64,000 nucleotides of DNA from Candidatus Babeliales bacterium (lineage in GTDB: Bacteria; Babelota; Babeliae; Babelales; JANWKD01). Where the stretch lies: positions 113,812 to 177,811 of the forward strand of contig CAVXJH010000005.1 of NCBI GenBank assembly GCA_963762115.1, given 5' to 3'. A program made the translations under genes and the position numbers. This document shows positions 34,250 to 55,393 of this stretch, piece by piece. The notes beneath the pieces were generated by a model that made no database searches, was not told the DNA's origin, and saw nothing but the letters and a program-made list of their open reading frames with translations. Numbering within the stretch: the stretch's first letter is position 1; every line of letters starts with the position of its first letter.

Positions 34250-34495
34250 TAGAAAAACCTAAAAAAGATATTGAAGAACTATAATTAGTATAATATTTTT
34301 TTAGCAAAAGCTCTAATAGCTCGGTTAGGATTATTGAAAACGATAGAAATAATAAGTATCCAAGATCTATAATGTACTGATTGAATTTTAATTAATGTTT
34401 CTTATGAGACTTGAACTCACATAGCCAATATAGGCATTTTACCCAGATTTTCCAAAGGAAAACTACACCTTAAAGTGTGTTAAATTAAAGAAACA

Positions 34496-34756
34496 CTATA
34501 CATTATTATCAAGAGATAAAAAATATCGACGTAAAAATATTCTGCCAGCGTTTGATTTTAAATATCATTCAAATTTTAAAGCTTTTGCTTCTTGATCAAA
34601 TCCCAGAAAACCTACCAAGTCCCACGGCTTAAAACCTTTAGTATATACTGATTTTCCTGCATTATGAGCTAAAAATCTTTGTTTTAAATTAGAAGTAAAA
34701 CCTATGTAAGTTTTATCGGGAAACGTTCGAGATTTGATATAATAAACATAAAACAT
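34496..34756 (-). pseudogene. Small GIY-YIG nuclease with in-frame TGA at 34565-34567
   Basis: YVYYI..TYIGFT.NL..R...HN..PW..FE*YLKSNAGRIF; homology continues past the stop. Confidence 0.85.
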
Positions 34757-34806
34757 ATTTTTTATCTAATTATTGGTTTGCCAGGGGCATTAAAGAGTAA
34801 GATTTT

Positions 34807-34846
34807 GACTGGCCTGCCAGGCATTTCCTTCAGAAATGCCTGGCGT
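34807..34846. repeat. tRNA-CCA-linked palindrome plus att core TGGCGT
   Basis: GACTGGCCTG-CCAGGCATTTC-CTTCA-GAAATGCCTGG-CGT. Confidence 0.85.
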
Positions 34847-35032
34847 TACCTAGTAGAGACAGCCCTTAACCATGAGCTCGAATTTAGCACTGGTGTGCAA
34901 GTCATAAAAACCGTTTGTTCTAGCTTAAATATTGAAATTAATAAATAATAATTTGCTCTATTTTATTTTGCTTTTTTTGCCATCTCTTGCTAAAATATAC
35001 TAAAACTGGCATAATTTAAGTGAGTAGTATAT

Positions 35033-35395
35033 ATGAAACACAAACAACTAATTTGGATTGGTTCTAGCAAAAAAGACCTTAAAGATCTTCCTGATGAAGT
35101 TATAGACACTATGGGATATGGGCTCTACCTCGCACAGAAAGGTGAGCAGCATGAAAATGCTAAGGTGCTCAAAGGCTTTGGAAGCGCTGGGGTTCTTGAA
35201 ATAAAAGAATCTGATGCAGCTGGCACCTATCGAGCTGTTTACACAGTTACTATGCCTGAGGTAGTATTTGTATTACATGTATTTCAAAAAAAGTCTAAAG
35301 AAGGAATTAAAACACCGCAACAAGATATAAAACTTATAAAAAGTAGACTTAAATGTGCTCAAGAAATTTATAAAGAAAAATTTAAAAAGAAATAA
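35033..35395 (+). CDS. RelE/HigB-like toxin (Gp49/DUF891 type)
   Basis: WIGSSKKDL..LP, LKGFG.AGV.EI, TYRAVY, VLHVFQKKS. Confidence 0.88.
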   Translation: MKHKQLIWIGSSKKDLKDLPDEVIDTMGYGLYLAQKGEQHENAKVLKGFGSAGVLEIKESDAAGTYRAVYTVTMPEVVFVLHVFQKKSKEGIKTPQQDIKLIKSRLKCAQEIYKEKFKKK

Positions 35396-35400
35396 GTGTT

Positions 35401-35829
35401 ATGAAAAAGAATAATGATTATATCATAAGTTCAGGTAATGTATTTGCTGATCTTGGTCTTTCAAATCCAGAAGAAAGACTTGCAAAAGCAGAATTAGCAC
35501 GTCAAATTAATAACATTATTAAGCAAAAAAAACTTACTCAAGTTGCCGCAGCTGAACTGCTGGAAATAGATCAACCAAAAATATCTGCTCTAAGCACTGG
35601 AAGATTATCAGGCTTTTCTCTCGAAAGACTTTTTCGTTTTTTAAATATCTTGGGCCAAGATATTACCATTAAAGTTACGCCAAAAACACGAACAAAACAA
35701 AAAGCTGAAGTTAGAGTCAATGTTCCCAAAACAAAGAAACCTGTAATGATAAAACAACCTCAAGCTGAATCTTCAAGCGTTCGAGCTCTTCATGCAAAAA
35801 AAAAAATAAATAGTTCTCGCTATGGCTAA
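35401..35829 (+). CDS. XRE-type HTH antitoxin
   Basis: SSGNVFADLG, LTQ..AA.LL.IDQPKIS, FSLERL; follows the toxin. Confidence 0.88.
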   Translation: MKKNNDYIISSGNVFADLGLSNPEERLAKAELARQINNIIKQKKLTQVAAAELLEIDQPKISALSTGRLSGFSLERLFRFLNILGQDITIKVTPKTRTKQKAEVRVNVPKTKKPVMIKQPQAESSSVRALHAKKKINSSRYG

Positions 35830-36115
35830 AGAATTAAAAGAATTTAAACATTATTTTTCAGAAAAGCTCAAAGATCTTAGGTATGCAATTGCGTATCTTA
35901 ATGAAGCATTAGCAAATGAGGATAAGCGAGTTTTATTAGTAGCATTAACAAATGTTTGTGAAGCTCAAAAGGGAAATATAAAAACAAAAAGTTTCCAAAA
36001 ATATCTTGAAAAACGCTTGGATAAAGACGAGATTACCGAAATTGAAAGACAAGCACTGTTAGAAATTGATATTCTTCAATCTATGCAAAATTCAATATCA
36101 GACGCTATTGACTGA
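35822..36115 (+). CDS. Degenerate addiction-module antidote-like protein
   Basis: LKD..YAIAYLNEAL...LLVAL..V.EAQ.G; HTH part missing. Confidence 0.55.
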   Translation: MAKELKEFKHYFSEKLKDLRYAIAYLNEALANEDKRVLLVALTNVCEAQKGNIKTKSFQKYLEKRLDKDEITEIERQALLEIDILQSMQNSISDAID

Positions 36116-36232
36116 TTAACATTGGTTTTATCAAATTTAAATTTTAATGATTTTTTTGCATACTCATTTTTATTGAGTGAATAAGGGCAAACACCGGATC
36201 GCATACAATGGTTGGGCCATAATAAGTGTGCA

Positions 36233-36583
36233 TTAAGGGATTACTATAACCATAAATGATGGAAAATGCAGAGGGAAATGGGTATATAATGGAATATAGT
36301 AATGATGCAATTTTTTGGGTAAAAAAACTGCAATGATTCCTGAAACCGCAAAAAGACCTGCAGCAGTCAATCCTGAATATGGCAATTTACTTTCATAGGC
36401 AGTACATCCGGCAATGCTAAAACTAAGTGCTGTTGCTGCCAAGAGTATGTTGGTAATTTTTATGCTTAGCGTTGTTTCTTCTTCTGCAACTTGACAGTCA
36501 CTTTCATGAGCGAGCAAAGTATAATTCTGACCGCTAAAGCATAAAAATATAAAAATTAACATTCTTAATTTGAACGTTGTCAT
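36233..36583 (-). CDS. Small secreted membrane protein
   Basis: Signal peptide plus two TMs. Confidence 0.6.
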   Translation of the reverse strand: MTTFKLRMLIFIFLCFSGQNYTLLAHESDCQVAEEETTLSIKITNILLAATALSFSIAGCTAYESKLPYSGLTAAGLFAVSGIIAVFLPKKLHHYYIPLYTHFPLHFPSFMVIVIP

Positions 36584-36585
36584 AT

Positions 36586-37149
36586 TTAGTTACTTTCACT
36601 CGTATTGTGTTTTTTGAGAAATCGCTGAGCCTTCTCTTTATCTTTTTCAAAACCACTAATTTTGTTTACTGTATAAAAATAGCTTATATCTTCATTACTA
36701 TAATTTAACAATATTCCAATGAGATAATGATTTAAATCCTTTTGAGGATTACGAGCATATTTTCTTGCAAATATATGTTCATACTCCTCAAGCATTAATG
36801 CCTGTTCTTTGCCTTCAGAGGTATAAAGAATTAATGAGGCTTCTTCCGGCTTATTATTAAAATTAAGGCCATTTTTTACTTCAATACTATGTATTCCTAA
36901 ATTTTCGATAGGTAAAAATTCTTTTGCAATATATGAAAAATCTTTTTTAGTTCCCCAATATACTTTTTTATACCCAGCAATCATACATTTTATTCGACAA
37001 TTAACATTGTCATTACCACTCAAATCATCATGTACATTTCTTGCTGCCCCGCAACATTGTTCCGAAGGAATGAAATCTTTATGCCAAATATTTGAAGGAA
37101 AATAAGCAAAGACAGCTGAGCTTAAAATGAATAATAGAAATTTTATCAT
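36586..37149 (-). CDS. Secreted hypothetical protein
   Basis: Signal peptide; IG.LL.Y..EDI..FY motif. Confidence 0.65.
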   Translation of the reverse strand: MIKFLLFILSSAVFAYFPSNIWHKDFIPSEQCCGAARNVHDDLSGNDNVNCRIKCMIAGYKKVYWGTKKDFSYIAKEFLPIENLGIHSIEVKNGLNFNNKPEEASLILYTSEGKEQALMLEEYEHIFARKYARNPQKDLNHYLIGILLNYSNEDISYFYTVNKISGFEKDKEKAQRFLKKHNTSESN

Positions 37150-37406
37150 AAAGTTTATCTTATTTTTAATATGTTTTTTTATTTTAAAAGTAGCAATACT
37201 GATGCATTAAGTAAAGATCATTTAATTAAAACAAGGTCCTTTTATTCTTTTTTATTGCCAATATAGGCTCTTCAAATAAGCCAACCATGTTAAATTATTA
37301 CTGTTTTAACCTGTAAAGCTATAGGCATCTAGAACTTTTTTGATTTTCTGTTAAACTAATAAATGATTATTAATCATAAAAATAACAAATTAAATGAGGT
37401 TATAAC

Positions 37407-37808
37407 ATGGATTATCACAGATTTTTGGCTATATTAGCTGTCTTTTTCTTATTTCAGAATACTTTTCCGGGAAATGATGAAGTTTCACAAACTTCCTTCA
37501 ATACAAGATCAGAAAACCCTATACAAGCCCCCGGTCCTATTATGATCCCATTAAACAATAGTCTCCCATTTTATTCCGTCTCAATCGCTAAAAAATTGTA
37601 CAACGGTACTCCCTTAACTCAAGAAGAAAAAAGATTTCCCAAAATAGCATTAGGCCTTACTTGTGCTATAAACGCACTTTTTATACCTGCCTGTTTAAAA
37701 ATGCAAGGTCACCCCGTTTCTGTCGGTAATGTTGCTGCGTTAACTATTGTTGCATTGCCAATAACTTGGTTCTTTTCTGAATTTTTAAATTGTGAATGGG
37801 ATGATTAA
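37407..37808 (+). CDS. Small secreted membrane protein
   Basis: GAGG RBS, signal peptide, two C-terminal TMs. Confidence 0.65.
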   Translation: MDYHRFLAILAVFFLFQNTFPGNDEVSQTSFNTRSENPIQAPGPIMIPLNNSLPFYSVSIAKKLYNGTPLTQEEKRFPKIALGLTCAINALFIPACLKMQGHPVSVGNVAALTIVALPITWFFSEFLNCEWDD

Positions 37809-37863
37809 AAAATAAGAAATTTTAATAACACATTATTTCGGTCTAATACTACTGGGAGAGTTT

Positions 37864-38340
37864 CTTGCATTTATTTCCAAATCGCATATACTCTCCGATT
37901 GTAGCAATCAAAGCACTCTCTTCATCAAAAGGAACAATCATGTTCTTGTTCAACAGAACGCAGATTCTGTCTCTCACCTCACAAAATCAAATTACATCCA
38001 TCCTCATTACCTTTCGAATTTCCGAAACATATATCGGGCTCGATGAGCAGGAAAGCTGCTACACAGCTTAATTCCAATTAATTTGTTCCTACATTCAAGA
38101 ATGGTTTTATAAAACCATAAAACTAAAAAAAGAAATTAAGATATTTCTAAAATATCTTGAGGAGATTTATTTATATGAAGAATCCCCCTAGAGTAAATAT
38201 ATTGTTATCTGTTGATGATAAAAACGATTTACTGATTTTTTTGTGATACTTATCGCCGTCGATAGAAGAGTTAATGCAAAACCAAGAAATAAACCTAAAG
38301 CAAAGAAATAGGCTCGCAATCGCGGGCCTTGTTTCTTGTG
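37864..38340. repeat. Conserved block (copy 1) homologous to 45425-45930, including a frameshifted copy of the small basic ORF (from 38175)
   Basis: Colinear high similarity over ~470 bp. Confidence 0.9.
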
Positions 38341-38424
38341 AGCAATTGCGCTACCTTTGAATACATTCGAACATCGCCTGTTAACATATGCTTTACCATG
38401 TGTGCGTTATCATTCTGAGTGTGT

Positions 38425-39213
38425 TTAAGAATACTCTTGTTGAAAGCCCGCATTATGCTCGGCGATACTTTCTTTTAATTTATTAATCTCAGATTGTATG
38501 TATCCATTAAGTGTTCTAGATGAGCGAGGAGTCGTTTTAGCATATAAAGCATTAATTTGTTGTATATTTTTATTACGTAAAGCTTCTCTTATTCTTATAT
38601 CTTCATCACGACTGTTTTTTACAATCTGAATCATTTCTTCAGCCTGTGCACAAGATGCTTCCATTTTAACTCGTGTACTATCCATTGCTTTCATATACAG
38701 TCTTTTTTCTTCATTACCATCAACCCTTTTTGCTTTCATAAATACTTGAAGCCTCTTAATTTGTAAAAAGAATTTATCTTCCTCATCAAGATTTTGTAAT
38801 AAGAGTAATCTATGTTCTCTTTTTTTGGTTTTTAATAAAAAATCAATATCACGAATTATAAGTCGTCCTATAAAATTATTGGTAGTTTCATGTAATTCTG
38901 ACAAGTGAGAAAATCGTGCCGGTACTTTTGATATTTGTGTGAGGTAACAAAGTAATCCATATGTTGATTCCAAAGATAGCATAGACTCAGAGAATGAAGC
39001 TTGTGGATTTTTAAAAAATATATTTTGTTCATCTGAATGTAGCCCTCTGTTAAGTAATGCATCAGCAAAACAGTTTAGAAGATGCAAGTCTTCAAAAAAT
39101 TCTTTTTTATGCGAAGACTCTTCTCTTGAGGAATTTTCGAGTTGCTTTTCCATTGCAGCTATGGATGTTGAAATAAATAATATAAAAAAGAATGTTTTTT
39201 TGAATGTAAACAT
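38425..39213 (-). CDS. Secreted hypothetical protein (cargo)
   Basis: Signal peptide then AMEKQ; helical. Confidence 0.75.
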   Translation of the reverse strand: MFTFKKTFFFILFISTSIAAMEKQLENSSREESSHKKEFFEDLHLLNCFADALLNRGLHSDEQNIFFKNPQASFSESMLSLESTYGLLCYLTQISKVPARFSHLSELHETTNNFIGRLIIRDIDFLLKTKKREHRLLLLQNLDEEDKFFLQIKRLQVFMKAKRVDGNEEKRLYMKAMDSTRVKMEASCAQAEEMIQIVKNSRDEDIRIREALRNKNIQQINALYAKTTPRSSRTLNGYIQSEINKLKESIAEHNAGFQQEYS

Positions 39214-39464
39214 AAAAACCTTTCATGAAAAAATATTGCAGCAATAATGTAGGTCGAATATATCACAATTTTTTCTTTATGTTAGCATGCCGCTATTTTT
39301 TTTATTCGGTTCAAAAAATAAACATGATTCAAAGTTACTTATACCATATTTACGCATATTAAAAATAAGCTCGCAATCGCGGGCCTTGTTTTTTGTGATC
39401 AATTACACTACCTTTGGATACCTGAGAGCATCATATGTCAACGCATATTCACAGAATGCAACGA

Positions 39465-40583
39465 ATGATCGACACCATAGTTTTTACTTTAACCAAAGAC
39501 AAATTTCACATCATTCAGCCCGATAAATTCCAACCATCTGCAACACTTTTGTTATCGCAGTTTTCTCACACAATTCAAGCAAAACAGAACCCAACACAAA
39601 AAGAACTCCTGAAAGGGGAATGCAAAAAACCTCGCTTAACATTGCAAAAGCGCATTAACGCTCAAGGATTGTTTGATCTCATGCTGAAAGCTGAACTCTC
39701 TTTGCCAAAGCTTTTATTTGGCAATAATGTCGATGAGCTTTGCTATAAAGATTTTCCGGCAATCATCAAAAAATTAGTTGTTGTGTTGCAAGAAATGGGC
39801 ATTGAAACAACAGCAAAAGCTCTAGAGAATGCACCGCTCTCTAGCGTTCATTATGCAAAGAATATCCCCCTAACTGACGGCTCTACGCCCTATCATTTCA
39901 TCAACAAAATTAAAGAAGCAAATATCAAAATCTCTCTCGACACAAATCAAACTGATTATCGCAACGATGGCCACAGTTATAAATGGCACTGCAATTCATA
40001 TGAAATTGTTTTCTATGACAAGATTTTGGATCTTGAAAAGGCCAAGAAGAGCGGCAAAAGATCGATTGATAAAGAGAGTGGAATAAACCATTCGCTTTTC
40101 CCCTTTTTCAGGAAAAAAAAGAAATTTGAGATCCTTCGGATGGAAGTTCGATTAAACAAGCGACAGAAAATAAAACAGCTGTTTAAAACATTGGGAATAA
40201 AATCGGATTTGACGCTGAAGAAATTGTTCAAGCCTGCCATTGCAAAGAAAGTGTTGTTGCATTATTTGGATGAACTGGAATCAAAGCGACCTCTCATACT
40301 TGATTATAAATCAGATAATGAAACAGCATTGCTTGCTGATTTAGTTTTCTATAATCCTGAGTTAAGCCCAACGAAGATTTTGCAGCTGTTTGGATTAAAG
40401 CAAGCGCTCAATGTTATGAGCCCTAGGGAGTTAAGAATGTTGTTTGCAAAGTATAATCAAAGATCCTGGTATAAAATTATGGCTGATGCAAATAAAGTTA
40501 AGTTGCCGATTGTGCAACAACCTTTAGATGTTATTCGTAAACAATTGATTGTATTTAAATCCTTAAAATACTTAAATCTATAA
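39465..40583 (+). CDS. Replication initiator, phage/plasmid gpII/X (CRI)-like, copy 1
   Basis: MIDT, SLPKLLFGNN, FYDK, LRMEVRL; start chosen to match copy 2. Confidence 0.75.
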   Translation: MIDTIVFTLTKDKFHIIQPDKFQPSATLLLSQFSHTIQAKQNPTQKELLKGECKKPRLTLQKRINAQGLFDLMLKAELSLPKLLFGNNVDELCYKDFPAIIKKLVVVLQEMGIETTAKALENAPLSSVHYAKNIPLTDGSTPYHFINKIKEANIKISLDTNQTDYRNDGHSYKWHCNSYEIVFYDKILDLEKAKKSGKRSIDKESGINHSLFPFFRKKKKFEILRMEVRLNKRQKIKQLFKTLGIKSDLTLKKLFKPAIAKKVLLHYLDELESKRPLILDYKSDNETALLADLVFYNPELSPTKILQLFGLKQALNVMSPRELRMLFAKYNQRSWYKIMADANKVKLPIVQQPLDVIRKQLIVFKSLKYLNL

Positions 40584-41243
40584 CATTTCTCGTGGGTCAA
40601 GTTCTTTGTTCATCTGCTTTGACATTGCTTTTTTACATTCTTTTAATTGAGGCATGATAAAGCTTGCTCGATTAATTATATTCATTAATTGTTCATATGA
40701 ATAACTTGAGTATTGATCAGTATAAATCTCATTTTTTACTAATCGATATAAATCCATTTGGTGCTCACGTGCTTCATTCGCATATTTATCAACTTCAGAT
40801 GAGATAAATAAAGCAGATTCCTCATGATAATTGTGAAAAGAAGCAATATTATTTAACCCAAGGAAATTATCAGCATCGTCTATTCTTTCTAGACACATTC
40901 TAATCAAATTTCTTAAATCTTCTGCCGTGATTAGTGTATCGTTAGCTTGTTTCTCTATTATTTTTCTGTTTATAGTTTCAAAAATTATATAAAGTGATCC
41001 AGCTTCTCGCAGTAGTTGATAAAGTTTAGGATAAATTTCATATAAATTTTTAGTCCTAATCTGTAAATGCAAATAATTTCGTTGCATTTCAAACTTTATT
41101 TTTTCAGCTTCTTTATTAATTAAGATTACAGCCCTTTTATAAAGCAAATAATTACAAATAACTCCTGTAAATATAGCAAAGATTGCTCCATTTATTACTG
41201 GAGTTAATTGATAAGTTTCTATAAGTGAAAGAATATAATTCAT
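40578..41243 (-). CDS. Hypothetical protein with N-terminal TM
   Basis: 221-aa ORF. Confidence 0.7.
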   Translation of the reverse strand: MNYILSLIETYQLTPVINGAIFAIFTGVICNYLLYKRAVILINKEAEKIKFEMQRNYLHLQIRTKNLYEIYPKLYQLLREAGSLYIIFETINRKIIEKQANDTLITAEDLRNLIRMCLERIDDADNFLGLNNIASFHNYHEESALFISSEVDKYANEAREHQMDLYRLVKNEIYTDQYSSYSYEQLMNIINRASFIMPQLKECKKAMSKQMNKELDPREML

Positions 41244-41291
41244 TATTATATTTTCTGTTTGAGAATAATGGAAATGGTTTACTGCAGTTAA

Positions 41292-41699
41292 TCATGAAAT
41301 TAAACATCTATTTTCTGATTTATCAGTTTTTGGATCTTGTGGAGGGTGAATAAATCCTGTTTCAGCTATTTGTTGTGCAAAAATAATACCAATATAATCT
41401 TTTTTTATTATATTTTTTTCAGAATCAATAATATTCATCTTTGTTAAAGCAACTTCCACGTCTGGATCAAATTCAATTGAAGAACATTTATATTTCATAA
41501 TCAATTGCATCAAGAGGTCTGATTTTTTCTCAACAGGCCAATCTAAAATCTCAAAATCTTTATTAAAATTGGCAACAAAAACTTTAAAGTTTTCATTTGC
41601 ATGAACATCCTCAACAGTTTTTTTTGCTCGCTCCATGGCTAAACATTCTGTCAAACTTAAACTAAAGATTACAAAAAGCATCATTTTTTTTATAACCAT
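41292..41699 (-). CDS. Secreted hypothetical protein ending in a CaaX-like motif (CLIS)
   Basis: Signal peptide then AMER; C-terminus RCLIS*. Confidence 0.7.
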   Translation of the reverse strand: MVIKKMMLFVIFSLSLTECLAMERAKKTVEDVHANENFKVFVANFNKDFEILDWPVEKKSDLLMQLIMKYKCSSIEFDPDVEVALTKMNIIDSEKNIIKKDYIGIIFAQQIAETGFIHPPQDPKTDKSENRCLIS

Positions 41700-41843
41700 G
41701 AATTATTCCTTATAAGTACATTATGAATGAAATAGAATCATGCACAGCATACAAAAAAAATTAATATAAATCATCTACTATCCCTCCCCCTTTTCGTGAT
41801 ATGCTAGGCACGTTTTAACATAACCCACTAAGCAAGAGCAATC

Positions 41844-42005
41844 ATGAAAGCAATTTTAATCGCCCGTGTAAGCACAGAAGAACAAAAAGAAGCTGGCAAT
41901 TCACTCCCAGCACAAGTAGCTCGTCTGGAGAAATACTGCCAAGTCAAAGATTTTCCAATTATTAAAAGCTTTAGCTTTGATGAAAGCGGTTATAAAAACC
42001 TGTGA
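41844..42005 (+). pseudogene. 5' fragment (52 codons) of large serine recombinase
   Basis: Nearly identical to 48930-49086; identity ends abruptly at 42000. Confidence 0.92.
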
Positions 42006-42019
42006 GAATTCCCCTGTGA

Positions 42020-42262
42020 TTACCAGAACCTTTTTTTAGTGAATGCTCTTCCAGAACCGGATTTAAGATATTTTTCAAATGCTACAGCCTGATCAAGATT
42101 ATTAAAAGTAATCGACGAAATAAGTTCCCATGGTCTGAATTGAGCAGTGTGAGCTGACCCGCCTGAATTATGAGTTTTAAGACGTTCTTGAAGATTGTCA
42201 GTATGGCCAATATAAGTTTGTTTGGAAAAATTTAGAGATCGCAAAAGATATACGTAATACAT
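42020..42262 (-). CDS. Small GIY-YIG nuclease (YhbQ/UPF0213-like)
   Basis: YVYLL, TYIGHT.NL.ERL..HN.G, RPW, FEKYLKSGSGR. Confidence 0.9.
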   Translation of the reverse strand: MYYVYLLRSLNFSKQTYIGHTDNLQERLKTHNSGGSAHTAQFRPWELISSITFNNLDQAVAFEKYLKSGSGRAFTKKRFW

Positions 42263-42281
42263 AAAACCTTTTTTGAAAAAA

Positions 42282-42416
42282 GGGCCGTGCCAGCCCGCCT
42301 CCGTTAAAACTTCGGCGCGCAGCTTTCGCCTTTGTTATTAATACTTCTTTATAAAATATAAATCATTTTAAAGAGAAGACTGGCCTGCCAGCTGAAGCCT
42401 TGGCGAAAGCTGGCGT
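42282..42416. repeat. REP-like palindromes, tRNA-CCA-linked hairpin and att core TGGCGT
   Basis: GCCCGCCTCCGTTAAAACTTCGGCGCGC; GACTGGCCTG-CCAGCT-GAAGCCTTGGCGAA-AGCTGG-CGT. Confidence 0.85.
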
Positions 42417-42532
42417 TACCTAGTAGAGGCAATCTTAAACCATGAAGTTGAATTTAGCACGGGTGTGCAAGTCATAAAAACCGTTTGTTCTAGCTTAAAT
42501 ATTGAGATTGACAAACAATGATTTGTAATATT

Positions 42533-43915
42533 TTATTTTGCTTTTGAAAGTTCATTCTGTGCACTTGTGCTTGGTGGTAAAGATACTTTTTTAGTAGGAA
42601 TAGGAAATTTTGATAAATTATTTACAGAAGAACTTGTTGCCATAAGGATTTTGGCATTTATATTTAATACTTCTTTGCCATCACTTTTTTTATCGTAAGG
42701 CTTATCAGAATTAGATAAAGTTAATGCGGAAGAATTTTGTAATTGACAAAAGTAGGCAAACATTAAAGGATATGAATAAAAAACATTTTCTTGAAATCCA
42801 ATTTCATGGATTTTCCATACATGTGCATTATTAAGAATACTTTTTGAATCTGATTTTTCTTTTATATCTTCTAAAAAACTGCATGCTCGTAAAATATTTG
42901 CCTTTATTATCATTAACTTTATAGCCTTAAATAATTGTTTATTATAAGTGAATATTTGAAAGCTATTTTCAAATTTTAACTTATTTGGATAATCGGCTAC
43001 CACAAAGCCATAGTTATCTAAATTTTCTAAAGTTTTATTATCAAACAATTGTGATTTTGTCATTGGTTTTGCATCAAAGTCAGTATAAACAAAACATAAA
43101 TCTCTATTTTGTCGAGTAGATTCTTCAGCTATAATAACTCTTAATAGATCTGCACGAAAAAAAACCGGAATTTCAGAAGAAAAAATTTCAGGATTTTTCT
43201 TAACTCTGGTTAATGTTCTTATATCGTTTAGTTCTATTTTGGCTATTTTGCTCCCATGTGCTGCAACTTTTTGATTGATGAGAAGTTGAGTATTTTCAAT
43301 CATTTTATCGGCTGTAAAAGAACTATCAAACCACAAATTGATAGTTCCTTCGGGATTTTTTTTTGACCACATTATAATTGTATCCAAAAACTGTAATCCA
43401 AAATTATTTTTATTATTTGATGGGTATATATAAGTTTGATCAATAGTAGCTTGCCTATTGATCCACATTAAATTAATCGAATATTGTTTTGGATAATTTT
43501 TATGTTGGGTGAAAAAAAATTGTTTTATTTTTGATCCCAAAGAACAATTTTCTTTATGGTCGGAACAAGATTTTGATGAACCATTAGAGTGCTTGTTCGG
43601 TTGATCGGCGTAATATTCTTCTTTTAAATAAGCTCCTATGGAAGTTCCCAATATTATAGGCAACAGAAAGTTTCTTGATGAATAATCATTATTATCTTTT
43701 TCTTGGGATGCAAGAATTACAAGAGGTCGAGAAGAGCGCTTAGTAGAATATAATCTTGAGAGAAGCCTAGAATGAAAGAGATTATTAGTAATCTGCTTTG
43801 CATTGAACGGTGCTAATCGGTTGAATTGCCATATGCTGCTACGTTTATTCATCGCGAAGGCAGATTGATTTAATAAACAAAGTGATAACTTTATAATTAG
43901 TATTTTTTTTATCAT
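42533..43915 (-). CDS. Secreted DxD glycosyltransferase-like effector
   Basis: INLMWIN, W...NP...INLWFDS, FFRADLLR, VYTDFD; signal peptide. Confidence 0.7.
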   Translation of the reverse strand: MIKKILIIKLSLCLLNQSAFAMNKRSSIWQFNRLAPFNAKQITNNLFHSRLLSRLYSTKRSSRPLVILASQEKDNNDYSSRNFLLPIILGTSIGAYLKEEYYADQPNKHSNGSSKSCSDHKENCSLGSKIKQFFFTQHKNYPKQYSINLMWINRQATIDQTYIYPSNNKNNFGLQFLDTIIMWSKKNPEGTINLWFDSSFTADKMIENTQLLINQKVAAHGSKIAKIELNDIRTLTRVKKNPEIFSSEIPVFFRADLLRVIIAEESTRQNRDLCFVYTDFDAKPMTKSQLFDNKTLENLDNYGFVVADYPNKLKFENSFQIFTYNKQLFKAIKLMIIKANILRACSFLEDIKEKSDSKSILNNAHVWKIHEIGFQENVFYSYPLMFAYFCQLQNSSALTLSNSDKPYDKKSDGKEVLNINAKILMATSSSVNNLSKFPIPTKKVSLPPSTSAQNELSKAK

Positions 43916-43936
43916 AGTGATTAGTTTTAAATTAAG

Positions 43937-44266
43937 TTAAACCTTTTTAGATTTTGTTTTATTTACCGATGTCTTTTTAGGTGACAAAGAAATTTTAATT
44001 GAATAACCCAAAGCATCAGCAACCTGAGCTAATTTTCCAACAGATGTTGTGGTGTATCCACCCTTTTCTAACCGTGCAATAGCAGGTTGTTGAAGATGAA
44101 GGCGCTCAGCTAGTTCTGATTGAGAATAACGTGCTTTTTTTCTTGCCTTTATAAATTTTTCAAGTAATGCAAATTCTGGTTCCAATAAGTCATATGCTTT
44201 TTTCACTTCTTCATTTTGCAAAGCTCTTTTTTTGAATGCTTCAAAGCTTGGTCTTTTATTCTTCAT
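43937..44266 (-). CDS. HigA-like HTH antitoxin
   Basis: ARKKA..SQSELAERL..QQPAIARLEKG. Confidence 0.88.
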   Translation of the reverse strand: MKNKRPSFEAFKKRALQNEEVKKAYDLLEPEFALLEKFIKARKKARYSQSELAERLHLQQPAIARLEKGGYTTTSVGKLAQVADALGYSIKISLSPKKTSVNKTKSKKV

Positions 44267-44588
44267 TTTTTACCTCTTTCATACGACGTATTGCTATTTC
44301 CATTTCTCTTGGTGGAGTTTTTTGTGTTTTCTTTATAAATTCGCTCAGTACTATTACAATTTTCCCTTTTATAATACAAAAAGGAGCCCGAGCGATACCT
44401 TCAGGGCCTTTTACTCTAATCTCAAAAAGTCCTTTTTTTAATGGCTTAATATGCGGCATGCCTAATTCATCAGGGCCCATTTTTTCAATAAGTTCAGCTA
44501 TTTTTAAAAACTTAACCTTTAGATGTATCGGCCATTCATCAATACCCTTTTCAACCTTAGTACTATAAAACTCAACTTTCCAGCTCAT
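44256..44588 (-). CDS. HigB/RelE-like toxin (Gp49 type)
   Basis: Start MSWKVEFY; LGMPHIKPL..GLFEIR, FIKKTQKTP..E. Confidence 0.88.
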   Translation of the reverse strand: MSWKVEFYSTKVEKGIDEWPIHLKVKFLKIAELIEKMGPDELGMPHIKPLKKGLFEIRVKGPEGIARAPFCIIKGKIVIVLSEFIKKTQKTPPREMEIAIRRMKEVKNEE

Positions 44589-44732
44589 ATAAATCTCGCT
44601 TTTTTTAACAAAACACCTTATAATTATAACAAATATATTATATTTTCGCAATATAATTAGCAACAACTTAAGAAAGCCAGAAGCCGTAATATTAAGCAAA
44701 AATAATTTTGATAGAGTAAAGGAATAAACAAA

Positions 44733-45410
44733 ATGCTTCATGATATAGAGAAAAAAATAATAATTTTAAAAAATAGTTCCCCCAAATCAATACCAATGGC
44801 TATCTCTCCAAATATAGATCTTGCTAGAGCAACCGTATTAAGAGAATGTATTTTTAAAAAGATTGAAGAGCTAGCAGAGAGCATACATGAAATGTGTAGC
44901 AAGAATAGATTAGTATCTGCTATGTCCTTACAAAGGGCATTGATGGAAACCCAAGCATTATTTTGGGTATTCTTGAAAAAAATTGAAGAGGCAATCAAAA
45001 CAAATAAATTGGATGATTTTAAGAACTTTTTAACCAAAGCTTTATCTGGTGCGCGTTCAGATGTAGCGACTAAGAAATTTGGTAGGCCACAATCAAACAA
45101 TGCATTAACATATATTGATCAAGTGAATAAAATAATACCTGGTTATCGAGAATGTTACGATCTTCTTTCTGAATTTGTACATCCCAATTCTGCAGGTGTG
45201 CGTAATGTATATAATAAACTTGATTGGAATAATAGAGAAATTCATTTTGGTGATAATAGAGAAAAAATAAACATTGATTTTGTTATAAAGAATCTTGATA
45301 TTTCTCTTGATTGGTTTATTAGTGAATATAACCGATCTGCAGATTTACTTAACCAATATAGTGTTTTAAGCTTTACTAATTTTGATAATAATGAGAAACA
45401 ATTAAGATAG
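44733..45410 (+). CDS. Helical hypothetical protein, HEPN/DUF5677-like
   Basis: R.LME and Y..LSEFVHPN motifs. Confidence 0.55.
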   Translation: MLHDIEKKIIILKNSSPKSIPMAISPNIDLARATVLRECIFKKIEELAESIHEMCSKNRLVSAMSLQRALMETQALFWVFLKKIEEAIKTNKLDDFKNFLTKALSGARSDVATKKFGRPQSNNALTYIDQVNKIIPGYRECYDLLSEFVHPNSAGVRNVYNKLDWNNREIHFGDNREKINIDFVIKNLDISLDWFISEYNRSADLLNQYSVLSFTNFDNNEKQLR

Positions 45411-45424
45411 CTATATAAAACTTC

Positions 45425-45930
45425 CTTGCAAATATTTCCAAATCGTATAATATCTTCCTTTGTAGTAATCAAAGCACTCTCTTCATCAAAGGAACAATCA
45501 TGTTCTTGCTCAACAGAACTCAGATTCTGTACTCCAACTCACAAAATCAAATTCCATCCAGCCTCATTATCTTTCAAACATCTGAAACATATATCGGGCT
45601 CGATAAGCAAGAAAGCTGCTACACAGCTTAATTCCAATTAATTTGTTCCTAATTCCTAGAATGGTTTTTATAACCATAAAAATTAAAAAAAGAAATTAAG
45701 ATATTTCTAAAATATCTTGAGGAGATTTATTTATATGAAGAATCCCCCTAGAGTGAATATACTTTTGTCTATTGATGATAAAAAACGACTTACTGATTTT
45801 TTTGTAATACTTATCGCCGTTGATAGAAGAGTTAATGCAAAACCAAGAAATAAACCTAAAGCAAAGAAAAGCGCAAAAGCAAAAACTAAGCGCAAAGAAA
45901 TAGGCTCGCAATCGCGGGCCTTGTTTTTTA
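45425..45930. repeat. Conserved block (copy 2) upstream of rep
   Basis: Homologous to 37864-38340. Confidence 0.9.
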
Positions 45931-45977
45931 TAATCAATCGTATTACTCTTGAGTTTTTGAAAAGCCTTTTATTTTAG
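45735..45977 (+). CDS. Small basic protein upstream of rep
   Basis: GAGGAG RBS, MKNPPRVNILL, K/A-rich; homolog at 38175. Confidence 0.65.
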   Translation: MKNPPRVNILLSIDDKKRLTDFFVILIAVDRRVNAKPRNKPKAKKSAKAKTKRKEIGSQSRALFFIINRITLEFLKSLLF

Positions 45978-46003
45978 CAATGCTTTAAAGAACACAACAG
46001 CGA

Positions 46004-47122
46004 ATGATCGACACCATAGTTTTTACGTTAACCAAAGACAAGTTCAACATCATTCACCCCGATAAATTCCAGCCCTCTGCAACACTTTTGTTATCAACGC
46101 ATTCTCACACAATCCAAGCAAAACAAAACCCAACACGAAAAGAACTCCTGAAAGGGGAATGCAAGCCTCGTTTAACATTGCAAAAGCGCATTAACGCTCA
46201 AGGGTTATTTGATCTCATGTTAAAAGTTGAACTTTCTTTGCCAAAGCTTTTGTTTGGCAACAATGTTGATGAACTTTGTTATAAAGATTTTCCAGCGATC
46301 ATCAAAAAATTAGGTGCTGTGCTGCAGGAAATGGGTATTGGGACAACGGCAGAAGCCCTAGAGAATGCGCCGCTCTCTAGCGTTCATTATGCAAAGAATA
46401 TCCCTCTCACTGACGGCTCTACGCCCTATCATTTCATCAACAAAATCAAAGAAGCGAATATCAAAATCTCTCTAGATACCAATCAAACGGATTATCGCAA
46501 CGATGGCCACAGTTATAAATGGCATTGCAATTCATATGAAGTTGTTTTCTATGACAAGCTTCTGGATTTGGAAAAAGCAAAGAAGAGCAGCAAGAGATCA
46601 ATTGATAAAGATAGTGCAATGAACCATTCGCCCTTCCCCTTTTTGGAAAAAAAAAAGAAATTTGAGATCCTTCGCATGGAAGTTCGATTGAACAAACGAC
46701 AAAAAATTAAACAGTTATTTAAAACGCTGGGAATAAAATCAGATTTGACGTTGAAGAAGTTGTTTAAGCCTGCCATTGCAAAGAAAGTTCTTTTGCATTA
46801 TCTCGATGAGCTTGAATCAAAACGACCTTCATTGCTTGATTATAAATCAGATAATGAAACAGCATTGCTTGCTGATTTAGTTTTCTATAATCCTGAGTTA
46901 AGCCCAACGAAGATTTTGCAACTCTTTGGATTAAAGCAAGCGCTGAATAGTATGAGCCCTAGAGAGTTAAGAATGCTGTTTGCAAAATACAATCAAAGAG
47001 CCTGGTATAAATTGATGGCTGATGCAAACAAGGTAAAATTACCCAATTCACATCAGCCATTAGAAATTATTCGTCAGCAATTGATCATTTTTAAGCAATT
47101 CAAAATAACCAAGAATGTTTAA
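46004..47122 (+). CDS. Replication initiator, phage/plasmid gpII/X (CRI)-like, copy 2
   Basis: Same motifs as 39465; highly similar paralog. Confidence 0.75.
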   Translation: MIDTIVFTLTKDKFNIIHPDKFQPSATLLLSTHSHTIQAKQNPTRKELLKGECKPRLTLQKRINAQGLFDLMLKVELSLPKLLFGNNVDELCYKDFPAIIKKLGAVLQEMGIGTTAEALENAPLSSVHYAKNIPLTDGSTPYHFINKIKEANIKISLDTNQTDYRNDGHSYKWHCNSYEVVFYDKLLDLEKAKKSSKRSIDKDSAMNHSPFPFLEKKKKFEILRMEVRLNKRQKIKQLFKTLGIKSDLTLKKLFKPAIAKKVLLHYLDELESKRPSLLDYKSDNETALLADLVFYNPELSPTKILQLFGLKQALNSMSPRELRMLFAKYNQRAWYKLMADANKVKLPNSHQPLEIIRQQLIIFKQFKITKNV

Positions 47123-47128
47123 AATTTA

Positions 47129-48730
47129 TTATTTACGCACAACATTATAAACATATTTATTTTTATGATGAGGTCCTTGCTCAACCATGGGAGATTTGCC
47201 ATTTACATAAACAAACGTACTTGGTAAAGGCAAATCAGAATCCTTGTTCTGTTTAATAAATTCAACTTGTGCTCTGAAATCTTGGTTTATCTCGCAAAGA
47301 GCTTCCATTAGTTGCCGATTCAATTCCTCTATACTTGTATGCATATCATCAATATCTATATCTTTTTTGAGTTCAATCCAAAATTCAAGTTGTTGATCAA
47401 GTTTATCATTTTCAAATTTATTAAATGCATAACGATTTATTTTTTCATATAAACCAGGTACTTTTAAAAGAGCGCGTTCAAGATCATCATACATTAAATT
47501 AGCACCATTAAACGTTAATGCGTCATCACCACGACCATATAAACACAAGATAGGCAAACTGGTGCGTGGCGTTAACTCAAAACCATGTTTTTTAAGAAGA
47601 TCTTTAACAACACTGACTTTAAATACCTTACCTTTATCCCCAAGATCGTAACGAACTCTTGGTGACACGCGTGATTCATCAAGGTCAGTAAATAACAAGC
47701 TGCCATCTTCTGTTTCTTCGATATAATCAAGTAAAGGATTGAAATGGAAAAAAATTGGCGTACCATCGAGAGAACCTAAGAGCTCTTTTTTAAACTGAGG
47801 ATTTTCTTTGCACAATAATTGCAATTTTTGTTCAAATTCTGTTTGCTGTGCAATATTAATACGCAAATCACTAGCGCCATAAGAAGAATATACTTCTTTA
47901 ATACCGCTTTTTTTAATACTATTGTAGACATTCTCAGACATTGCTTCACCACCAACAACAATAGTAATATCATAATCACGCAAATCAAACGGTGCATTTT
48001 CTACAAATTTTTTCATGTGTGGTGGATATCCTGCAATCACATAACGTTGACCTGGACCAATATCTTTGAGCGCATCATATAACTTATCAATGTCAGGACC
48101 AATTGATAATATTAGTTGACTGCCTGTAAGCGCATATGTTGATGTCATACCCGTTGCCCATGTACCTAGTGCAAACATGTTGCAAAAGATATAGGGCTTA
48201 TCGCCTAATGCAGCTTTACTTGCTACACGAATCCATGCTTTAACATTTTCCATCTCTTGATGACCGCGTACCCATTTAGTAGGTTTTCCAGTTGTACCAG
48301 TAGAAGTATCAATTTGTCCTTGCAAAGGAAGTTTTCCAAATAATAGTGTTTGTTCAATAGTATATTTCTTAATATAATTTGATTTGCTCATCAGAGGAAC
48401 ATTTTCTAAAGAATCAGGCACTCCTGGGGGACAGTTGTTATCAACAAAATCTTTATAAGCAGGAACATTTCTATATGCCTTCAAAAATATTCTTCTCGCC
48501 TTCAATTGCGAAAGGAAAAATAACGTCTTTTCAGGGGCATGGGCGAACAGAGAAGGATAGCGCACTGAAACTGAAGAAAGTACACTCGATAATTTTCCAA
48601 TAGCAGTATCGCGAACTTGAAACAGCATATCTTGAACGTCGCAAGATTTATCAGAAGAACAAATACTGATATTTTCCATTGTAAGAAAAAGCAATGTGAT
48701 AATTATTTTCTTTGTTATAGATAGTTTCAT
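47129..48730 (-). CDS. Phenylacetate-CoA ligase-like (ANL superfamily) protein with signal-like leader
   Basis: AYRNVPAY, TSTGTTGKP, GGE, YGASD, RYDLGD.G, GR.DD. Confidence 0.85.
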   Translation of the reverse strand: MKLSITKKIIITLLFLTMENISICSSDKSCDVQDMLFQVRDTAIGKLSSVLSSVSVRYPSLFAHAPEKTLFFLSQLKARRIFLKAYRNVPAYKDFVDNNCPPGVPDSLENVPLMSKSNYIKKYTIEQTLLFGKLPLQGQIDTSTGTTGKPTKWVRGHQEMENVKAWIRVASKAALGDKPYIFCNMFALGTWATGMTSTYALTGSQLILSIGPDIDKLYDALKDIGPGQRYVIAGYPPHMKKFVENAPFDLRDYDITIVVGGEAMSENVYNSIKKSGIKEVYSSYGASDLRINIAQQTEFEQKLQLLCKENPQFKKELLGSLDGTPIFFHFNPLLDYIEETEDGSLLFTDLDESRVSPRVRYDLGDKGKVFKVSVVKDLLKKHGFELTPRTSLPILCLYGRGDDALTFNGANLMYDDLERALLKVPGLYEKINRYAFNKFENDKLDQQLEFWIELKKDIDIDDMHTSIEELNRQLMEALCEINQDFRAQVEFIKQNKDSDLPLPSTFVYVNGKSPMVEQGPHHKNKYVYNVVRK

Positions 48731-48929
48731 TCTTTTTTGCCTCTTGAAAATTTATATCTGAAATAATTTAAAAAATAAAATAACTAATTAATAATATTAT
48801 TATGAATGATATATAAAAAAAATCAATAATCGTCCTTATAGGACTCTATTTACAAACTATCTACCCTCTCTCCACCCTTCATGATAAGCTATAGAACATT
48901 TAAATAATACCATAACTATGAGTACTATC

Positions 48930-50384
48930 ATGAAAGCAATTTTAATCGCTCGTGTAAGCACAGAAGAACAAAAAGAAGCTGGCAATTCTCTTCCAGCACA
49001 AGTAGCTCGCCTAGAAAAATACTGCCAAGTCAAAGATTTTCCAATCATTAAAAGCTTTAGCTTTGATGAAAGTGGTTATAAAAACCAACGAGAAGCATTT
49101 GATGCAATTTTAGATTTCGTCCTAGAGCAAAAAGAAAAAGTAGCCGTATGCTGCGACAAAGTAGATCGCTTGTCGCGAAATATATTCGATAAACGAGTTT
49201 CCACGCTCTATGAAAAGGCATTGCAAGATCAACTAGAGTTACATTTTGTTTCTGATGGACAAGTTATTAACAGCCGCATTTCAGCCGTTGAAAAATTTCA
49301 ATTTGGGATCAGTTTAGGATTGGCAAAATATTATTCTGATGCCATAAGCGATAATGTTAAAAGAGCCATAGAGCAAAAATTGCGCAAAGGCGAATGGATT
49401 GCCAAAGCGCCCTATGGTTATAAAAATATCCTTCTAGGGGATAAAAAAGATATCTGTGTTGATGAGTATGCAAAGCACATTGTGCACAAAGCTTTTGAAT
49501 TATATGCAACGGGAGCTTTCTCTTTTGAGCTTTTATGCAAAAAAATGAAAGAAGATCATAACATTGTGTGGAGTGTGAGTTATATTGATAAAGTTTTTAA
49601 TAACCATTTTTATTATGGCGTTATGGTCATTAAAGGCCAACAGTATCCTCACAAATATCCACCCATTATTTCTCAAGCACTTTTTGAAAAGGTTCACCTC
49701 ATGAAAAAAAGCCTTAATAAAAAACAAAGTAGATATGCAGGAAAGCCTTATCAATATCGTGGGCTTTTGCGTTGTGATGATTGCGGATTTGCCATTACAC
49801 CAGAAAAGCACAAAGGGCATGTGTATTATCATTGCACAGAATTCAAAGGCAAACATGGCGCAAAATGGCTGCGAGAAGAAGCAATTACTGAACAATTAGG
49901 AGCTATTTTTAAAAGCTTACAAATGCCTGAAGATGTTTTAAAGCAGCTTTCTGAAACATTAACTGAAGTGCATGAAAACAAAGCTGCCTTTCAAGCAAAA
50001 CAATTTGATGCACTTACCAGGGAACAAAAAGAAGTCACGAAAATGATGGATAATTTATACCTTGATAAACTCAAAGGGAGAATTACTGAGAGTGCGTATG
50101 ACAGATTTTACCAAAAGTTCAGAGATCAAACCACCGATATTTCTATTAGATTAGAGCAATTACAAGAAGCAGAAGATAACTACTATATTACCGTGAAATA
50201 TCTGCTAGAGCTAACAACTCGAGCTTATGATTTATTTATGGGTTCGGAAGTGGAAGAAAAAAGGCAATTAATCAAACTTGTATTATCGAACTTGAGACTT
50301 AAGGGTGAAAACATCGTCTACGACGCGCATCAGCCCTTTGATTTGATACTAAAAAGTACTGATGAACAACTATGGCGTCCCTAA
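48930..50384 (+). CDS. Large serine recombinase (integrase); stop codon inside tRNA-Glu
   Basis: ARVSTEEQ, DRLSR, PYGY, Zn ribbon (CDDC..HC), coiled coil; ends EQLWRP*. Confidence 0.95.
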   Translation: MKAILIARVSTEEQKEAGNSLPAQVARLEKYCQVKDFPIIKSFSFDESGYKNQREAFDAILDFVLEQKEKVAVCCDKVDRLSRNIFDKRVSTLYEKALQDQLELHFVSDGQVINSRISAVEKFQFGISLGLAKYYSDAISDNVKRAIEQKLRKGEWIAKAPYGYKNILLGDKKDICVDEYAKHIVHKAFELYATGAFSFELLCKKMKEDHNIVWSVSYIDKVFNNHFYYGVMVIKGQQYPHKYPPIISQALFEKVHLMKKSLNKKQSRYAGKPYQYRGLLRCDDCGFAITPEKHKGHVYYHCTEFKGKHGAKWLREEAITEQLGAIFKSLQMPEDVLKQLSETLTEVHENKAAFQAKQFDALTREQKEVTKMMDNLYLDKLKGRITESAYDRFYQKFRDQTTDISIRLEQLQEAEDNYYITVKYLLELTTRAYDLFMGSEVEEKRQLIKLVLSNLRLKGENIVYDAHQPFDLILKSTDEQLWRP

Positions 50385-50450
50385 GGGGATTCGAACCCCT
50401 GTTTTCGCCGTGAAAGGGCGGTGTCCTGGACCAGGCTAGACGATAGGGAC
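50373..50450 (-). tRNA. tRNA-Glu(TTC), integration target
   Basis: Cloverleaf GTCCCTA..TTC..TAGGGAC-G-CCA. Confidence 0.95.
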
Positions 50451-50495
50451 GCATATTTTTTATGTCAAAAAAGGTGATTTCTTAGTCTCGTGTTA

Positions 50496-50585
50496 AAGAC
50501 TGGCCCCTACTACGCCAAAGCTACGAAGGGCAGGCTTGCCAGTCGAAGTTTGCCGAGCCGGAAGGCCCGGATAAACGAAGACTGG
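50496..50585. repeat. Nested REP-like palindromes attached to the tRNA-Lys CCA end
   Basis: AAGACTGGCC..CTACGCCAAAGCTACGAAGGG..GCCAGTCGAAG..CGAAGACTGG. Confidence 0.8.
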
Positions 50586-50658
50586 TGAGCCGCGATGGAT
50601 TCGAACCATCGACCCACAGCTTAAAAGGCTGTTGCTCTACCAACTGAGCTAGCGGCTC
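50583..50658 (-). tRNA. tRNA-Lys(TTT)
   Basis: GAGCCGC..TTT..GCGGCTC-A-CCA cloverleaf. Confidence 0.95.
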
Positions 50659-52229: not shown

Positions 52230-52289
52230 GTCTGGTAGCTCGCAAGGCTCATAATCTTGAAGTCGTAGGTTCAAATCCTACTCCCGCCA
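52222..52289 (+). tRNA. trnfM: Plastid-type tRNA-Met(CAT), probably trnfM, missing the 5' acceptor strand
   Basis: D arm, CAAGG-CT-CAT-AA-TCTTG and T arm present; the 5' partner of TCCCGCC is absent. Confidence 0.85.
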
Positions 52290-53176
52290 AAATAGAATAA
52301 AGATTTTTCAACCATTTCATCACTTTGTCATCGTTTTGCCTGCAAAATGAAAAAGTGGAACAAGTTGAGTAGAAGAAATTAACAATTACAACTAAAATAA
52401 TAGAAATACAGTGGTTTGGCACAAACTTGTTTTCTGTTTTGTTCACTTGCTCACTTGTTCAGTTTGCCTCATCACTTTGCAGGCAAAGTGAAACAAAGTG
52501 ATGGAGCAAGAAAAAATTTCTAAAAGGATTTGCTATTTTTAAATCGATAAAAATACTCTTTCACTCTACAAGAAAAGAGGTGGCCTTATACATTTTTTAG
52601 GAGAACAAGCTACAAAACACTATACAAACTCTTGACACGGGAAGAGTGTCAACGGTCTTCATCAATAGAATTGAGAACAAGGTGCCCTTTCGTTCATTGT
52701 ATTAACGTACAATGTACACCAGGACGGTTAAAAAAAAGATCCTCTTTTTACTGTACTAATGAGTTGCATTTCTCTTTGCTCTTAGAGGCATCAGAGATGG
52801 TGTTGTAGGGGGCCTGACTCAAAAAGCCACTGCCTCTCGTGATCCTTTCTTTACATTTTTGTAGTGTCATTGTACTAACGTACAATCTTAATTAGCATCT
52901 TTCTACATCCATTTGCTACCGCAAATGGATGTAGAAAGATGCAACCCACAAAATGGATAAGGCCGGGAGTAAGGGGGTTTCGATGGCCACCCAGTTGCAT
53001 TGCCATAGATTCTTGAATGAGAATCTTAAGGCAATGCGAAAGGCCTTATCCATTTTGGTTACAAAATGTAAAGAGGGGGCTCCTACAACACCCAAAAGCA
53101 AATAGATGTAAAGAGGTGACAGAAACAAAATGGTAGAAGAGTGACGGGAAAAAGGTTTATAAAATAAGGAGAAGAC

Positions 53177-54880: not shown

Positions 54881-55393
54881 CCACTCGAGATGGGAGTGAT
54901 TCTACAAGCGAGTCTGAGGGTTACGAGAGACCAATGTCAGTGGCTTCGAGGTCCGTCGAATATAAAGTCCTGGAATAGAGAAAAAGTTTTTTTATAAAAC
55001 AAGCAAAAAGGATTCCTAAAGATCATGTTTTTTTACACCCATTAGCTTTGGGGTGTTGTCTACCCCTAAGGGCCTTTACCACTGTACTAGCGTTTTGAGT
55101 CTTGTAAGGGGCCTTATCAGACCCTTCAGCTTTTTGCTTTAGCCTCTTGGGTTATTGCATTGCTTTAAGATTCTCAAATGAGAATCTATGCTGATTAAGA
55201 TTGTACTTCAGTACAATGACAATGCTAAAGGGGCCCCTCCAACACCATCTCTGATGCCTACAAGACCCCAAAAGCTTACGCTTCTTACTTCTGCCTCTTG
55301 GGTCTGGGAACACCCTCTCTGATATCTTTAAGTTTGTAATATAGACGCAAAAACTGCTTTAGTTAAAAGAGATTGTACGTTAGCATGCTGGTT

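Follow-up and report, generated by a model that had tools for sequence, protein, structure and literature searches.

We describe a small cassette behind tRNA 3' ends, found in a 64,000-nucleotide window (C5:113812-177811, the whole stretch of DNA that was analysed) of the 1.53 Mb genome of a Candidatus Babeliales bacterium; positions below are those of the window unless a contig or locus is named. The cassette is about 0.4 kb long and consists of a hairpin leader fused to the tRNA CCA, followed by a gene for an 80-residue Slx1-like GIY-YIG nuclease. It is real and widespread, and the new part of the finding is its link to the loss of integrases, here large serine recombinases (LSRs). Its layout, its tie to tRNA ends, the LSR stubs beside it and a sharp boundary at the nuclease stop codon are observed directly. 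As an explanation we lean towards one-sided homing: anchored in the tRNA, the cassette would spread while deleting at least 1 kb of the DNA beside it, in this window the 3' part of an LSR.

Two cassettes at one tRNA gene

The tRNA-Glu(TTC) gene (50373-50450, minus strand) is the target of two islands, A and B, and of two cassettes. Read on the minus strand, the att sites of both islands run ACG-CCA-G...C-TGG-CAGG-CCA-GTC, the first CCA lying at 34841-34843 and 42411-42413, respectively. An earlier note on this DNA had described at each site a hairpin that starts from the tRNA CCA itself, with a small GIY-YIG gene behind it, and we find both at both sites. Hairpin 1 (34807-34843, minus strand) begins at the displaced tRNA CCA and closes with a second CCA; its fold has -18.3 kcal/mol and a z-score of -4.6, and none of 200 shuffles was as good. 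Hairpin 2 (42378-42413, minus strand), also at a displaced CCA, has the same sequence as those behind tRNA-Phe and tRNA-Leu(gag). The 150 nt of leader 2 fold less distinctly (z = -1.9, 7 of 200 shuffles as good) and include a second repeat unit (42284-42330, minus strand) that starts with the complement of the CCA-proximal arm; module 1 has no such unit.

GIY-YIG gene 1 (34496-34756, minus strand) is a pseudogene of a divergent subclade, with a single in-frame TGA at codon 64, whereas gene 2 (42020-42262, minus strand) is intact and codes for 80 residues of an Slx1/UPF0213-like protein. Both match Pfam GIY-YIG, gene 2 with PF01541 over residues 1-72; its closest relatives of solved structure are Slx1 and UPF0213 proteins, and NCBIfam and PHROG give it no name. 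Across 70 homologues we find Y5 in 69, Y17 in 69, G19 in 69, R27 in 68, H31 in 70 and E63 in 68, residues which we take to be the catalytic ones of the GIY-YIG active site. The two proteins are 44% identical and their DNA aligns just in the att tail and in short repeat patches, which rules out that one module is a duplicate of the other, in agreement with the earlier note.

It had also been claimed that module 2 sits in the place of about 1.3 kb of the older LSR, and this holds. The LSR stub of element A (41844-42005, plus strand) has 53 codons left. From 41844 to 42000 it aligns with the intact LSR of element B at 48930 (93% over 165 nt); solid identity stops at 42000, with the BLAST alignment reaching 42008, and only 11-19 nt separate the stub end from the stop codon of gene 2.

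Hairpins and nucleases at tRNA 3' ends

The hairpin is no peculiarity of the att sites but a repeat of tRNA ends throughout the genome, which the earlier note had missed. A fixed hairpin pattern is present at the CCA of 17 of the 41 tRNAs called by ARAGORN, at a tmRNA-like end and at both att sites; genome-wide it has 61 matches among 36,772 CCA sites, 44 of them outside the 17 tRNAs. Identical hairpins stand behind unrelated tRNAs. Most hairpins have no nuclease gene (17 tRNAs versus 3 genes in this genome), such as the unit at 50495-50585 (minus strand) behind tRNA-Lys(TTT) (50583-50658). In all DNA that was fetched, the pattern is carried by 122 of 325 distinct CCA-ending tails. In 91 of the 122 the triplet behind the CCA is fully complementary to the triplet ahead of the closing TGG (shuffle mean 12.7, maximum 22). 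A downstream second unit can pair with that first triplet in 58 of 67 cases (shuffle mean 10.6). Both counts are inflated by related genomes. The arms covary, and at least nine different pairings occur.

Two other accounts of the hairpin were rejected. It belongs to no known RNA family that we could match, apart from one chance snoRNA match (E = 0.75), and it is neither specific to att sites nor a required target arm of the LSR, given its spread over the tRNAs and its absence from the far att site of an element at tRNA-Gln; the LSR thus neither needs nor brings it. As a separate observation, reverse-complementing the loop of hairpin 1 (34817-34843) gives the loop found in the related trailer hairpins of tRNA-Leu(caa) and tRNA-Asn, relative to which the interior of hairpin 1 looks inverted.

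As for the nuclease, the genome holds six GIY-YIG matches, and the three that belong to the gene 2 clade all lie behind a CCA hairpin. A nuclease query matched in 162 of the 261 genomes of the phylum and in none of the other 99, which include incomplete genomes. Of 70 distinct nuclease copies, 42 lie no more than 600 nt downstream of a tRNA or tmRNA end on the same strand, 21 lie behind a displaced att remnant or a partial tRNA end with a hairpin (labelled by eye) and 7 are unlabelled. The earlier note had called for a survey of such genes at tRNA 3' ends; in a scan across phyla, a tRNA or tmRNA end was present no more than 600 nt away at 66 of 80 loci, and six of the misses had less than 600 nt upstream. 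The nuclease genes are strongly associated with hairpin-bearing tRNA ends. In most loci and phyla there is no element, and an intact tRNA stands in front of the cassette.

Nuclease clades track the identity of the tRNA more closely than the family of the host. On a tree of the nucleases, another check that the earlier note had suggested, the tRNA labels of 42 rows require 13 changes versus 22.7 in shuffles (0 of 1000 as low); host family requires 26 versus 26.8 on the same rows (322 of 1000) and gives a weak signal over all 70 (38 versus 42.0, 12 of 1000). The best relatives of the copy at tRNA-Arg in this genome form a clade of 24 rows (99/96), of which 22 are at Arg sites in many host families. 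Tandem cassettes also occur (L082 in genome G076, L027 and L013); at L082 a second copy of the tRNA-Asp 3' part, about 65 nt, lies between them, and L027 and L013 are without a duplication.

Integrase remnants beside the cassette

The earlier note had connected the second cassette with deletion of the resident integrase. The connection itself recurs well beyond the window; that the deletion took place on arrival and not afterwards is a timing that we infer. In the same genome but outside the window, tRNA-Arg(TCT) is followed by a hairpin, a nuclease and, in convergent orientation, an LSR stub that is about 30 codons long, and so two of the three Slx1-like genes of this genome abut a stub of a tRNA-targeting LSR.

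A search of the phylum with the LSR stub gave 159 matches in 87 of 261 genomes. We examined 115 copies among the 150 matches listed; those left out were mostly open frames of at least 490 codons, at contig ends or outside the matches listed. The script counted 90 copies with the C-terminus kept, 22 with it lost and 3 cut by a contig end. Two of the lost (L093 and L090) have their last codons in another frame and were reassigned, which gives 92 kept and 20 lost. A convergent GIY-YIG gene lies within 110 nt in 10 of the 20 copies that lack the C-terminus and within 1.2 kb in another 2; the remaining 8 have none. No such gene is found within 1.2 kb of any of the 92 kept copies, but 78 of these overlap a tRNA and cannot hold a cassette by construction, so that Fisher p-values overstate the difference, the more so as many copies are related. 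A fair control is given by the other 14, in which the LSR does not end flush at a tRNA or a different insertion has arrived; of these, 11 are away from tRNAs, 2 are split by insertions of about 1-1.4 kb and 1 carries a hairpin-only insertion; all of them keep the 3' end. L090, decayed, is a twelfth kept copy away from a tRNA.

The 10 abutting cases amount to 8 distinct junctions in 5 genomes, at about codons 24, 27, 35, 48, 52, 70, 148 and 153, and no remnant of the LSR C-terminus lies between nuclease and stub in any of them. The copies that abut a stub are scattered on the nuclease tree (7 changes versus 7.7 in shuffles). With the differing codons taken into account, these are separate events. 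If arrival brings long deletions, some islands should have lost the whole LSR, and this was subsequently found: among 40 further regions, 6 keep the att tail without an LSR (L273, L274, L279, L294, L295 and L301), 1 has the island marker gene only, 1 has decayed fragments, the rest are without an island mark, and none has a full LSR past the nuclease.

We also note that in L143 (genome G254) and L145 (genome G233) blocks of stub plus nuclease, 440-580 nt long, occur again 1.8 and 3.6 kb away with 92-93% identity. Once formed, a junction of stub and nuclease may be copied with homology on both sides.

The boundary at the nuclease stop codon

A contig from sequencing run X1 (depth 9.6) is the same as 42019-42604 but for 2 differences (99.7% identity) and departs from the window one base past the stop codon of gene 2. 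Beyond that point it has 229 unrelated bases, for which we found no clear match in the genome or in the fetched loci. A contig from run X2, possibly the source sample, equals 41995-42182 exactly, with just 24 bases left of the junction. Between copies of the cassette, the DNA past the nuclease stop codon is unrelated. We gave no weight to similarity ending at the stop codon in pairs that are 78-89% identical, because coding constraint explains it.

One-sided homing and its alternatives

From these sequence comparisons we would propose the following scheme. The nuclease would nick or cut branched DNA at the tRNA 3' end; Slx1, according to the accessible part of its description, cuts one strand at DNA junctions (PMC1564403). 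Repair would then anchor in the tRNA of a presumed donor copy that bears the cassette, and would copy the leader and the gene. The far end would be chewed back and closed, at the stop codon or just past it, by an illegitimate joint, with loss of the resident 3' flank, while short transfers would leave hairpin-only copies. It is likely, on this evidence, that the cassette is a selfish element and that its arrival overwrites what lies next to it; islands would thereby be locked in place.

In the window, cassette 1 would first have come to lie behind tRNA-Glu, although it may be an old tRNA trailer rather than an arrival. Element A would then have integrated at the CCA and displaced cassette 1. 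Cassette 2 would have arrived next and removed 1.3 kb of LSR A together with the tRNA-side att arm of A, so that element A could no longer excise, and finally element B would have integrated and displaced cassette 2.

More tentatively, the cassette could be a minimal selfish element that crosses phyla: its 80-residue Slx1-like nuclease would recognise the structure of the tRNA 3' end, home one-sidedly, seed hairpin-only copies on many tRNAs and erase the integrases of competing islands. Were this so, the cargo of islands would be frozen in repeated cycles, the tRNA-preferring nuclease clades would be very small site-directed nickases, and mobile cargo would have a route to become permanent in reduced host-dependent genomes. 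Dead integrases in tandem islands at tRNA genes are a familiar picture, and their cause would be a second, much smaller element at the same site.

A number of observations weigh against one-sided homing with deletion. Just 8 of the 70 sampled nuclease copies abut a stub, 8 of the 20 LSRs without a C-terminus have no nuclease within 1.2 kb, and most of the kept LSRs are, as said, no control. Dead LSRs lose internal pieces without a nuclease (L060, L065, L074, L075/L076 and L094). All stubs are shorter than 175 codons, which neither uniform endpoints nor a one-step random deletion would readily give; it takes deletions that are long, erosion in repeated rounds or selection. Outside the phylum, no integrase pieces face the nuclease (LSR profile at 80 loci, Pfam on 132 convergent frames; tyrosine integrases, screened only via those 132 frames, were not found either), intact host genes often begin less than 50 nt from the nuclease gene, and in Bradyrhizobium the cassettes are inherited vertically, with both flanks. 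Module 1 is atypical in that it has no second unit and that its nearest relative has no upstream hairpin. The X1 boundary is a single contig, the tree has 80 columns and its rows are the best matches to two queries; switches of tRNA occur too, with Glu, Arg and Asp copies in one tight clade. Finally, the sparse contigs of four sequencing runs hold no excision joints, circles or empty sites.

The main rival is later decay. The cassette would again be mobile but would insert cleanly at the CCA; the LSR, cut off from its att arm, would later suffer deletions that stop at a useful or selfish nuclease gene. We consider this unlikely. Dead LSRs do undergo deletions, but many frameshifted LSRs at tRNAs remain full length, and while the hairpin-only insertion at L088 left the LSR nearly whole, none of the 12 nuclease-linked copies keeps the LSR 3' end, so that no intermediate is seen. 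Repeated erosion, or selection against long truncated recombinases, would explain the short stubs; on the other hand, the X1 contig changes exactly at the stop codon between copies that are 99.7% identical. Some tandem cassettes with a duplicated tRNA 3' part (L082) are what clean integration yields.

A still less probable explanation is that the nuclease is a passenger. Clusters of tRNA genes would serve as strong homology anchors, passive homology-facilitated illegitimate recombination would swap the DNA behind a tRNA from one lineage to another, and hairpin and gene would serve the host in tRNA 3' processing, termination or repair. A mechanism of this kind, with no dedicated enzyme, has been proposed for displaced effector genes of the type VI secretion system (T6SS), although the accessible part of the same paper puts such recombination orders of magnitude below ordinary homologous recombination (PMC5361080). 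The stable inheritance in Bradyrhizobium, the strong residue conservation and the many hairpins without a nuclease gene speak for this reading. However, the gene has no match in 99 of 261 genomes (incomplete ones included), identical hairpins stand behind unrelated tRNAs, and the joints are concentrated at the stop codon of the nuclease instead of being spread over the donor DNA.

That the cassette is ordinary LSR cargo, or crowds by chance at a hot spot, is very improbable and largely refuted: blocks of stub plus nuclease can move or be duplicated with island DNA (the repeats in G254 and G233), but at element B the cassette is positioned outside the att core, it often stands behind an intact tRNA where no element is present, and at the far att site of the tRNA-Gln element there is no hairpin.

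Relation to known systems

The literature covered, which included few subscription papers and no supplements, held no description of a cassette at tRNA ends or of a link to integrase loss, and the cassette is apparently undescribed in print. It combines SegB-like homing and homology-facilitated illegitimate recombination with an Ssn- or REP-like layout, and departs from each of these systems in a defining respect.

Ssn proteins are small single-domain GIY-YIG proteins beside NTS/SRM hairpin repeats, a layout that their authors, in the accessible part of the paper, compare to insertion sequences (PMC11893778). The cassette shares with them the small single domain (below 150 residues, here 80) and hairpin repeats that are also found without the gene. 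As far as that part of the paper goes, however, Ssn (clade cd10448) has SRM repeats on both sides, whereas here the repeat is fused to the tRNA CCA and stands on the upstream side only; the term tRNA does not occur in the main text of that paper. The published degenerate SRM pattern has no match in this genome, a weak test, as two small GIY-YIG genes with inverted repeats on either side are unmatched as well. These two genes (G000 C3:533000-533206 and C3:558505-558723) lie away from tRNA ends in an Ssn-like layout; gene 2 is 33% identical over 55 residues to an inverted-repeat-flanked small GIY-YIG protein of the same genome.

SegB of phage T4 is a free-standing GIY-YIG homing endonuclease in a tRNA cluster; it cuts a tRNA motif and spreads, and recipient markers are lost, according to the accessible part of PMC2330249. 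The cassette resembles it in having a GIY-YIG gene among tRNA genes, conserved active-site residues and a patchy, non-vertical distribution tied to the target (vertical in Bradyrhizobium). By the same partial source, SegB homes between homologous phage regions, whereas the cassette has homology on the tRNA side only; it further differs in being a bare 80-residue domain, in bacterial chromosomes, with a hairpin leader.

For T6SS effector genes, the accessible part of PMC5361080 describes sequential displacement by homology-facilitated illegitimate recombination, in which older parts are pushed downstream into arrays. One homologous anchor, one illegitimate joint and a newcomer that deletes the resident gene are common to both cases; there, to judge from that part, a protein-coding region provides the anchor and the module brings no nuclease along. 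Repetitive extragenic palindromes (REPs) and REPINs with their RAYT genes are similar in that many short palindromes exist and few lie beside a small DNA-cutting gene, according to PMC3733652; that paper does not mention GIY-YIG. Unlike them, the cassette has a GIY-YIG gene and no HUH (Y1) transposase, and its repeats are pinned to CCA ends.

The islands themselves resemble SSV/Mx8-type islands with attP inside the integrase gene, with a C-terminus split at the tRNA 3' end and tandem stacking, as given in the accessible part of PMC4383910. Elements A and B differ in using an LSR and in a common core of just about 5-6 nt. According to the same part of that Islander paper, serine integrases were in 2014 not known to target tRNA genes.

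The islands and their surroundings

Bacteria of this group are parasites of protists. The two islands are read from the hybrid att junctions at 34841 and 42411. To the right of each, in-frame translation from the core TGG gives the missing C-terminal tail of an LSR, and to the left lies DNA that was formerly 3' of the tRNA CCA; two islands, A and B, are thus stacked at one tRNA. With tRNA-Glu the att sites have only about 6 nt (TGGCGT) in common, and the remainder is the split LSR tail.

Element A, the older island (34841-42000, plus strand), contains a RelE/HigB-like (Gp49) gene, an HTH gene, cargo, an open reading frame (ORF) of 382 codons and the LSR stub; its far att junction (34841-34948, plus strand) holds the split C-terminal tail of its own LSR, in frame from the core TGG. 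Element B, the younger island (42411-50377, plus strand), is bounded by two TGGCG cores, and its far att junction (42411-42521, plus strand) likewise holds the split tail of its own LSR; the att tails of A and B are 88% identical over 136 nt. The intact LSR of element B (48918-50384, plus strand) has Resolvase, Recombinase and Zn-ribbon domain matches, and its last codons overlap the tRNA-Glu 3' end.

The 382-codon ORF (39435-40583, plus strand) is 91% identical to 46004-47122 and has no match in Pfam, NCBIfam or PHROG; as an ORF of 370-380 residues it marks these islands across the phylum. In the same-genus genome G110 there is a single island at tRNA-Glu, with an LSR 95% identical to that of element B and with the cargo found at 35822-36118 in element A. 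The far end of that island has a different cassette, 58% identical to gene 2; copies from distant host families reach 69%.

The LSR family of 48918-50384 overlaps tRNA 3' ends in 78 copies (Glu 29, Asp 21, Arg 17, Gln 10, Asn 1), and its C-terminal tail is split off at the far att site (L034-L142). An isolated C-terminal LSR fragment (L001:2893-2982), beside repeats and beyond the far att site of a tRNA-Arg element, looks like a still older layer.

Just past GIY-YIG gene 1, a contig of run X3 has 5 bases in place of the 170 nt at 34320-34489; part of this 170-nt stretch resembles, by eye, a decayed tRNA 3' half, for which Rfam has no match. On the other side of the islands, 52700-63500 is a dense mosaic of several repeat families, 30-85 nt long and in both orientations. 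Between the repeats lie tRNA calls that are degenerate or have no CCA (Asn, Tyr, Arg, Gly), and the DNA near 52233-52290 is tRNA-like.

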